Source: Escherichia coli (GTDB taxonomy: Bacteria; Pseudomonadota; Gammaproteobacteria; Enterobacterales; Enterobacteriaceae). From it: a stretch of DNA of 64,000 bases. The translations under genes and the position numbers were made by a program. The first letter of the stretch is position 1; the number at the start of each line of letters is the position of its first letter. The notes beneath the pieces are model-generated. The model worked only from the letters and a program-made list of their open reading frames with translations. It made no database searches and was not told the origin of the DNA. Of the stretch, positions 21,992-22,066 are shown one piece after another. Location of the stretch: NCBI RefSeq assembly GCF_009931435.1, contig NZ_CP043414.1, one strand, 5' to 3'.

Positions 21992-22066
21992 TTATTCTGC
22001 GTACCACGCTGTTGTCCTTTCCGTGCTGATAAGGGCCAGCAAGTTATCCGGTTTGCTTCGTTGAGT
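21992..22066 (-). pseudogene. Relic of an Rhs core 3' region (about 20 codons, stop codons on both sides)
   Basis: Minus-strand reading ..RSKPDNLLALISTERTTAWYAE* resembles RhsB ..[24 protein letters not shown]..; DNA 21991-22045 is roughly 85% identical by eye to rhsB 24841-24895. Confidence 0.55.

Follow-up and report, generated by a model that had tools for sequence, protein, structure and literature searches.

Recombination within the core of rhs genes displaces tips and leaves arrays of dissociated tips with partial cores, the cores within one locus being identical (Jackson et al. 2009, BMC Genomics 10:584, PMC2935791); orphan rhs-CT/rhsI modules are known that retain upstream rhs sequence, stop codons included (Poole et al. 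2011, PLoS Genet 7:e1002217, PMC3150448). Here we analysed a short segment of an rhs locus within a stretch of 64,000 nucleotides of Escherichia coli DNA (contig NZ_CP043414.1 of assembly GCF_009931435.1, hereafter the window), in which a first-pass annotation had read positions 21992-22066 as a decayed Rhs core-end relic marking an ancient tip-displacement event. With a probability of roughly 0.85, we regard the segment as a non-functional scar, namely the first 51 nt of a 5′-truncated piece of rhs core that formerly stood at the head of a displaced ('orphan') tip. As such it is an ordinary product of a well-described process, the debris of Rhs tip displacement.

Like the dissociated tips of Jackson et al. 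(2009, PMC2935791), the relic is co-oriented with a full-length rhs gene, downstream of which it lies in a low-G+C array; it derives from the 3′ part of the core, and its 5′ junction travels with the upstream module. Unlike them, it has lost both the tip and the hyperconserved DPxGL end and retains no more than 51 nt of core; these share only 85% identity with the core at the same locus, and their nearest allele is the rhsC core of K-12. With the orphan rhs-CT/rhsI modules of Poole et al. (2011, PMC3150448), such as the orphan that ybfC follows at the rhsC locus of K-12, it shares position and ancestry. It differs from these modules in having neither a toxin-coding part nor an intact cognate pair, and is the wreck of a module rather than a module. 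Arrays of orphan immunity genes left by sequential effector displacement also reportedly occur at T6SS loci, as Kirchberger and colleagues are said to have described in 2017. The present array resembles these in that successive positional immunity genes are kept while the toxins of three of them are reduced to stubs or less, but it belongs to an E. coli Rhs system and its pentapeptide immunity gene is truncated and chimeric. Finally, the relic abuts a piece of IS3 in which about 60 of 66 nt match the right end, the terminal motif included; unlike an intact IS3, this piece is a solo end, with an 18-nt internal deletion in the lineage of the window.

The locus occupies the rhsB chromosomal position, as given by the flanking genes nikR and yhhJ/rbbA in the RefSeq annotation of 2020CK-00188, which is 99.8% identical to the window over the array stretch. 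In that genome nikR is followed by the genes for an RHS element core protein, YbfC, an NTF2-fold immunity protein and a DUF6258 protein, then by the relic, which is unannotated, two partial pentapeptide-repeat pseudogenes, a gene for a YbbC/YhhH-family protein, a lyase fragment, ISEc1 (yhhI), yhhJ and rbbA. Assignment to the rhsC locus, a first guess from the presence of ybfC, was ruled out by the same flanks. The relic lies on the same strand as the full-length rhs gene, downstream of it, amid tips and small ORFs (Table 1). The labels DUF6258, NTF2-type, YbfC and YhhH were taken from the RefSeq annotation; a search of NCBIfam gave no match for any of the four.

Table 1. Features of the rhs array around the core relic, in window coordinates.
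Feature	Coordinates	Strand	Basis
Full-length rhs, 1399 aa	24149..28348	-	ORF list and translation; 'RHS element core protein' in 2020CK-00188
ybfC, positional immunity gene for the tip now attached	23583..24152	-	2020CK-00188 annotation; 4-nt overlap with the rhs stop
Orphan 'NTF2 fold immunity protein' gene	23112..23339	-	2020CK-00188 annotation
Decayed, AT-rich second Rhs core fragment, core codons ~920-1004	22628..22869	-	blastx against four Rhs proteins
Toxin 3′ stub, last 18 codons	22578..22631	-	17/18 aa identical to residues 1406-1423 of the 2014C-3599 Rhs
Orphan DUF6258-family gene, positional immunity gene	22159..22560	-	Annotation
Spacer after the DUF6258 gene, 115 nt	22044..22158	-	Alignment of rhsA-, rhsB- and rhsC-locus copies
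rhs core fragment, 51 nt, encoding (L)LALISTERTTAWYAE, core codons ~1153-1170	21993..22043	-	
IS3 right terminal inverted-repeat end relic, 47 nt	21948..21994	-	Alignment with IS3 of E. coli C and the IS3-like end beside clbA
Rhs toxin gene end, last ~35 nt (..FPELDDWRNR, stop)	21925..21962	-	Alignment; blastx
Pentapeptide-repeat gene, N-terminal ~95 of 161 codons, positional immunity partner of the deleted toxin	21644..21928	-	
K-12-type RhsB toxin 3′ stub, ~29 codons	21563..21649	-	Fused in frame to the pentapeptide fragment; junction alignment
yhhH (YbbC/YhhH family), positional immunity gene paired with the K-12-type RhsB tip	21211..21591	-	Annotation

BLASTN within the window aligned 22040-21993 without gaps to 24887-24840 of the local rhs gene (41/48 identical, 85.4%, E = 2.8e-9), which agrees with the identity of about 85% that had been estimated by eye, and returned 21993-22040 as the sole rhs-core DNA match within 21500-23600. 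The local counterpart comprises codons 1155-1169 and lies 66 codons upstream of DPIGL; the first-pass annotation had thus picked the right region and slightly overestimated its distance at about 70 codons. The minus-strand frame of the fragment reads ..LLALISTERTTAWYAE up to a stop codon, and with its upstream context ..W, a stop, TQRSKPDNLLALISTERTTAWYAE and a second stop. When other strains were searched (5,426 complete E. coli genomes, 28 Gb), the same 48 nt matched the K-12 rhsC core at 47 positions (97.9%, E 8e-13), whereas the local core matches K-12 rhsC at 42 of these 48. From its nearest allele the relic departs by a 3-nt deletion at the 5′ edge and by a single substitution, GGG to AGG (Gly to Arg). 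Its identity of 85% to the local gene therefore reflects an allelic difference between rhs cores, and 'decayed' overstated the condition of a fragment that is truncated rather than mutated. Its assignment to an Rhs core end was borne out by the rhsC match and by the homologous fragment of LD39-1, labelled 'RHS domain-containing protein, incomplete' by PGAP.

The near-identity to the upstream full-length core that marks the dissociated tips of Jackson et al. (2009) was not found here, the relic being 85.4% identical to the local core against 97.9% to that of K-12 rhsC; this implies that recombination later swapped either the array or the main gene. Both the DPxGL core end and the C-terminal toxin domain are absent, since core homology ends at 21993, where the IS3 end starts. 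Of the 75 nt originally delimited, the 51 nt at 21993-22043 are Rhs-derived, whereas 22044-22066, read as 'TQRSKPDN', is not Rhs and corresponds to the spacer found behind the DUF6258 gene of other strains.

This spacer follows the DUF6258 gene wherever it is present, and in every case it gives way to core at one and the same position (..CCTGCCGCTGG.., LPLAL..). The identical succession of DUF6258 gene, spacer and core start was found at the rhsA locus of 2014C-3599 and JNE070796, at the rhsB locus of the window, 2020CK-00188 and PEC1020, and at the rhsC locus of LD39-1. The DUF6258 gene itself is about 99% identical to the copies of LD39-1 (locus sequence L002) and 2014C-3599 (L003) and about 90% identical to that of PEC1020. 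In 2014C-3599, whose locus sequence is collinear with the window at the DNA level (5530-6171 and 22632-21993, respectively), the DUF6258 gene stands directly after the full-length Rhs gene, and the spacer leads into an intact 5′-truncated orphan core-end that continues through DPIGL and a toxin and is followed by yibG. This orphan has the look of a displaced tip before decay, and the fact that it is headed by the identical 5′ junction, together with the setting of the relic in a tip/immunity array, corroborated the position of a displaced tip that had been proposed. In LD39-1 the block of ybfC, NTF2-type and DUF6258 genes is collinear with the window up to 21993, and beyond the junction there is a core relic of 87 nt that ISEc1 has cut. 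Such a fixed junction, recurring across loci and followed by different core alleles, agrees with the prediction of the recombination model (Jackson et al. 2009), in which crossing-over inside the core cuts modules out and re-inserts them, so that the old tip is pushed downstream with a partial core in front of it.

PEC1020 (rhsB locus) and JNE070796 (rhsA locus) carry the same composite as the window. In JNE070796 an array of ybfC-like, NTF2-type and DUF6258 genes, relic, pentapeptide gene, yhhH-like gene and yibA lies at the rhsA locus beside yibH and yibI, and in PEC1020 the same array, from the ybfC-like gene to yibA, lies between nikR and yhhJ, suggesting that whole tip arrays have passed from one rhs locus to another.

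On the 3′ side, core homology stops at ..GCAGAATA and the sequence goes on as AATCCTACCC. The 65 nt that come next in PEC1020, TAATCCTACCCACGTAGTATGGACACAGGCCTAAGCGAGGTTCTGGTTTTCAAATTTTTCAGGAGT, match canonical IS3 from the very point at which core homology ends, aligning with the right end of the IS3 of E. coli C read inward, TGATCCTACCCACGTAATATGGACACAGGCCTAAGCGAGGTTCTTGTTTTCAAATTGTTCCGGACT; the matching positions include the terminal TGATCCTACCC motif (TAATCCTACCC here). The IS3-like end beside clbA that served as a comparator is itself about 95% identical, over its 230-nt end, to copies annotated as 'IS3-like element IS3'. The 18-nt deletion is found only in the window and 2020CK-00188 and shortens the IS3 relic to 47 nt, compared with 65 nt in its relatives. 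The stop TAA downstream of ..WYAE was made by the core/IS3 junction (GAA/TAATCC). Neither a transposase, nor a left end, nor a recognisable target duplication accompanies the IS3 relic, and the remainder of the element is replaced by a toxin stub.

From about 21962 onward the sequence is 95.6% identical to the locus of Z0117EC0062 (L008, 6001-6318, for the pentapeptide part), beginning with the 3′ end of a full-length Rhs gene (..FSQIFPELDDWGNR, stop), and by blastx the stub matches the end of the Z0117EC0062 Rhs protein at 9 of 10 residues. The switch from IS3 to toxin end falls inside a shared microhomology of 15-17 nt, CAAATT(G/T)TTCCGGAGT, also written CAAATT(T)TTCCGGAGT. The first-pass annotation had proposed that the toxin of the displaced tip was since deleted; beside the pentapeptide ORF a toxin has indeed been deleted, the last 35 nt or so of its gene surviving at 21962-21925, and we infer that this toxin was the one attached to the relic core fragment. 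On the simplest reading of these junctions, the fragment would have been truncated by an IS3 insertion and then by a microhomology deletion, a route that had not been foreseen. A separate IS2 insertion is present in KOr021 (L011, 5245-6600), flanked by a 5-bp GGAGG target duplication and located 7 nt upstream of the pentapeptide ATG, beside the IS3 relic; this short stretch has thus been struck by IS elements at least twice. The intact IS3-family element of KOr021 was considered as the ancestral insertion and ruled out, as it is this unrelated, later IS2 with its own 5-bp duplication.

The pentapeptide-repeat ORF does adjoin the relic, as had been stated, but is itself a truncated chimera. Its intact 161-aa homologue in Z0117EC0062, which matches Pfam PF00805/PF13599 (1.8e-8) as well as NCBIfam pentapeptide models, overlaps the stop of a full-length Rhs gene by 4 nt, and this pairing of toxin and intact pentapeptide gene on a full-length Rhs occurs in 144 genomes, Z0117EC0062 included, at an identity of at least 99%. 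In these intact copies, however, the toxin that goes with the pentapeptide gene is carried at another locus on a different core, which is RhsD/E-like and has no DNA match to the relic, so that the physical link of this toxin to the relic core fragment is a presumed one; the toxin tip of Z0117EC0062 matches no Pfam family, and NCBIfam recognises only its RHS core end. In the window, pentapeptide homology ends at 21644 and the RhsB tip 3′ end runs from 21649, overlapping yhhH as in strain A31, to whose rhsB 3′ end and yhhH the stretch 21649-20925 is 93% identical. The 125-codon 'pentapeptide' ORF (21563-21940, minus strand) is accordingly an in-frame chimera of a pentapeptide gene and an RhsB toxin end, and for this reason it appears as two partial pseudogenes in the PGAP annotation.

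Upstream of the relic, the tip of the full-length rhs gene together with ybfC is of the type of the K-12 rhsC-locus orphan, to which window 24300-23544 is 97.5% identical. This tip and ybfC stand on a full-length rhs at the rhsB position here, and K-12 has them solely in the form of a silent orphan of its rhsC locus; the gene is thus an example of an orphan tip that is attached to a full-length core in another strain. The NTF2-type immunity gene block is found in the same form in 825 genomes, and a perfect 17-bp AT-rich hairpin at 23358-23395 lies directly upstream of its ORF (-19.6 kcal/mol, z = -7.2 against shuffles). The second core fragment shows 40-57% amino acid identity to Rhs proteins (E 3e-10), contains a frameshift and an internal stop, and is fused at 22631 to a stub of the toxin that precedes DUF6258 in 2014C-3599. 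Altogether four successive positional immunity genes are kept (NTF2-type, DUF6258, pentapeptide and yhhH), and three of them, the DUF6258, pentapeptide and yhhH genes, are each preceded by a toxin 3′ stub of 18-29 codons or less; toxin-coding DNA was thus lost repeatedly and the immunity genes were retained.

Among the 5,426 complete E. coli genomes, spacer plus core start occurs in 535, and the composite that also includes the IS3 relic and the pentapeptide fragment in about 272, against ~263 that show the junction but no IS3. The window's own allele was found at 100% identity in one genome only, the next best match (91.1%) being already cut by IS3, and an untruncated version of this allele was found in none of the 5,426. 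The relic/IS3 junction had no match in GTDB searched with one genome per species. The same IS3 junction in about 272 genomes would represent one ancestral event, and the displacement scar may be called 'ancient' in the sense that it predates the split of these carriers, and in no stronger sense, the junction being absent from the representatives of other species. Spacer and relic (21993-22160) are 91.1% identical (9% diverged) to those of other composite carriers, compared with 98.6-98.8% identity (about 1.3% divergence) for the adjoining IS3/pentapeptide part (21640-21992), a contrast that points to mosaic recombination. The alleles also carry different lesions, in-frame stops (TAA/TAG) in PEC1020 and JNE070796 and the 3-nt and 18-nt deletions in the window, which suggests a segment without constraint.

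Which sequences are homologous, where the junctions lie and which strains share them was observed directly, and from this we infer the following order of events. A module of toxin and DUF6258 would have integrated by recombination within the rhs core, shunting the resident tip downstream behind a core fragment with a fixed start (codon ~1153, LPLAL..). IS3 would then have inserted about 17 codons into this core fragment. A deletion between the two 15-17-nt microhomology copies, of which one lay in the right end of IS3 and the other close to the 3′ end of a downstream Rhs toxin gene, would next have taken out the toxin, the remainder of the core fragment and most of IS3, but not the pentapeptide gene with its GGAGG ribosome-binding site. 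A further deletion may have fused the pentapeptide gene to the RhsB toxin stub ahead of yhhH, and newer tips, NTF2-type and then ybfC-type, would have been added upstream.

The segment might instead be the remnant of a second, once full-length tandem rhs gene that was eroded by deletions rather than displaced as a tip. That a longer core once stood here is suggested by the more decayed core fragment 600 nt upstream in the array (codons ~920-1004), and the relic allele does differ from the local core; however, at three different rhs loci the DUF6258 spacer gives way to core at an identical nucleotide, and in 2014C-3599 this 5′ boundary heads a typical 5′-truncated orphan, which fits a module junction spread by core recombination and not independent erosion of a whole gene. 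We consider tandem erosion improbable. A chance resemblance to rhs, which the first-pass annotation had itself raised as the outcome that would overturn it, could be entertained for a match of only 48 nt, but the E-values obtained in the window and against 28 Gb, the agreement with rhsC at all but one position, and a strand and position like those of other strains' orphan core fragments make coincidence vanishingly unlikely.

It is somewhat less likely again than tandem erosion that the segment is kept as functional, be it as a hybrid core/IS3 promoter for the downstream orphan immunity ORFs or as a homology handle through which recombination could activate orphan tips. The composite has been retained in some 272 genomes, and a weak sigma-70-like match (AGGACA-16-AATAAT, 9/12, 22018-21991, minus strand) is followed by a GGAGG Shine-Dalgarno sequence and an ATG at 21937-21926, ahead of the pentapeptide fragment. 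Such a 9/12 match is unremarkable, however, as a promoter scan returned 9 sites where 4.9 ± 2.4 were expected, and the alleles vary across the segment by substitutions, stop codons and indels, while KOr021 tolerates IS2 between the segment and the ATG. As for a homology handle, the longest exact run shared by the relic and the local core is 11 nt, homologous recombination by RecA needs identity well above this length, and no toxin is left downstream to activate. No Rfam match was obtained at E <= 1 over 20000-24400, and a scan of the junction region found no terminator. The scar reading set out above thus remains our preferred one, and the fragment, showing no sign of function in the sequence, most likely does nothing today. 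Co-option of the core/IS3 junction as a promoter or 5′ leader for the chimeric pentapeptide-RhsB stub ORF and yhhH would be a long shot; if it were true, the scar would contribute to protection against the Rhs toxins of competing strains.

The finding is already known in kind, homologous fragments being annotated in RefSeq genomes, and by itself it carries little weight; its value is that of a cleanly dissected example of how debris builds up in E. coli rhs loci, where core recombination would displace tips, IS insertion and microhomology deletions would lose the toxins, and the immunity genes would be kept. The junctions described here at the nucleotide level, namely the set point behind DUF6258 at which core begins, the end of IS3 and the microhomology of 15-17 nt, could be used as markers of lineage in following the exchange of tip arrays among rhsA, rhsB and rhsC. 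The orphan immunity genes nearby may still give protection from the toxins to which they correspond, and the recurring pattern of a toxin stub with a retained immunity gene fits selection for orphan immunity and not for orphan toxins.
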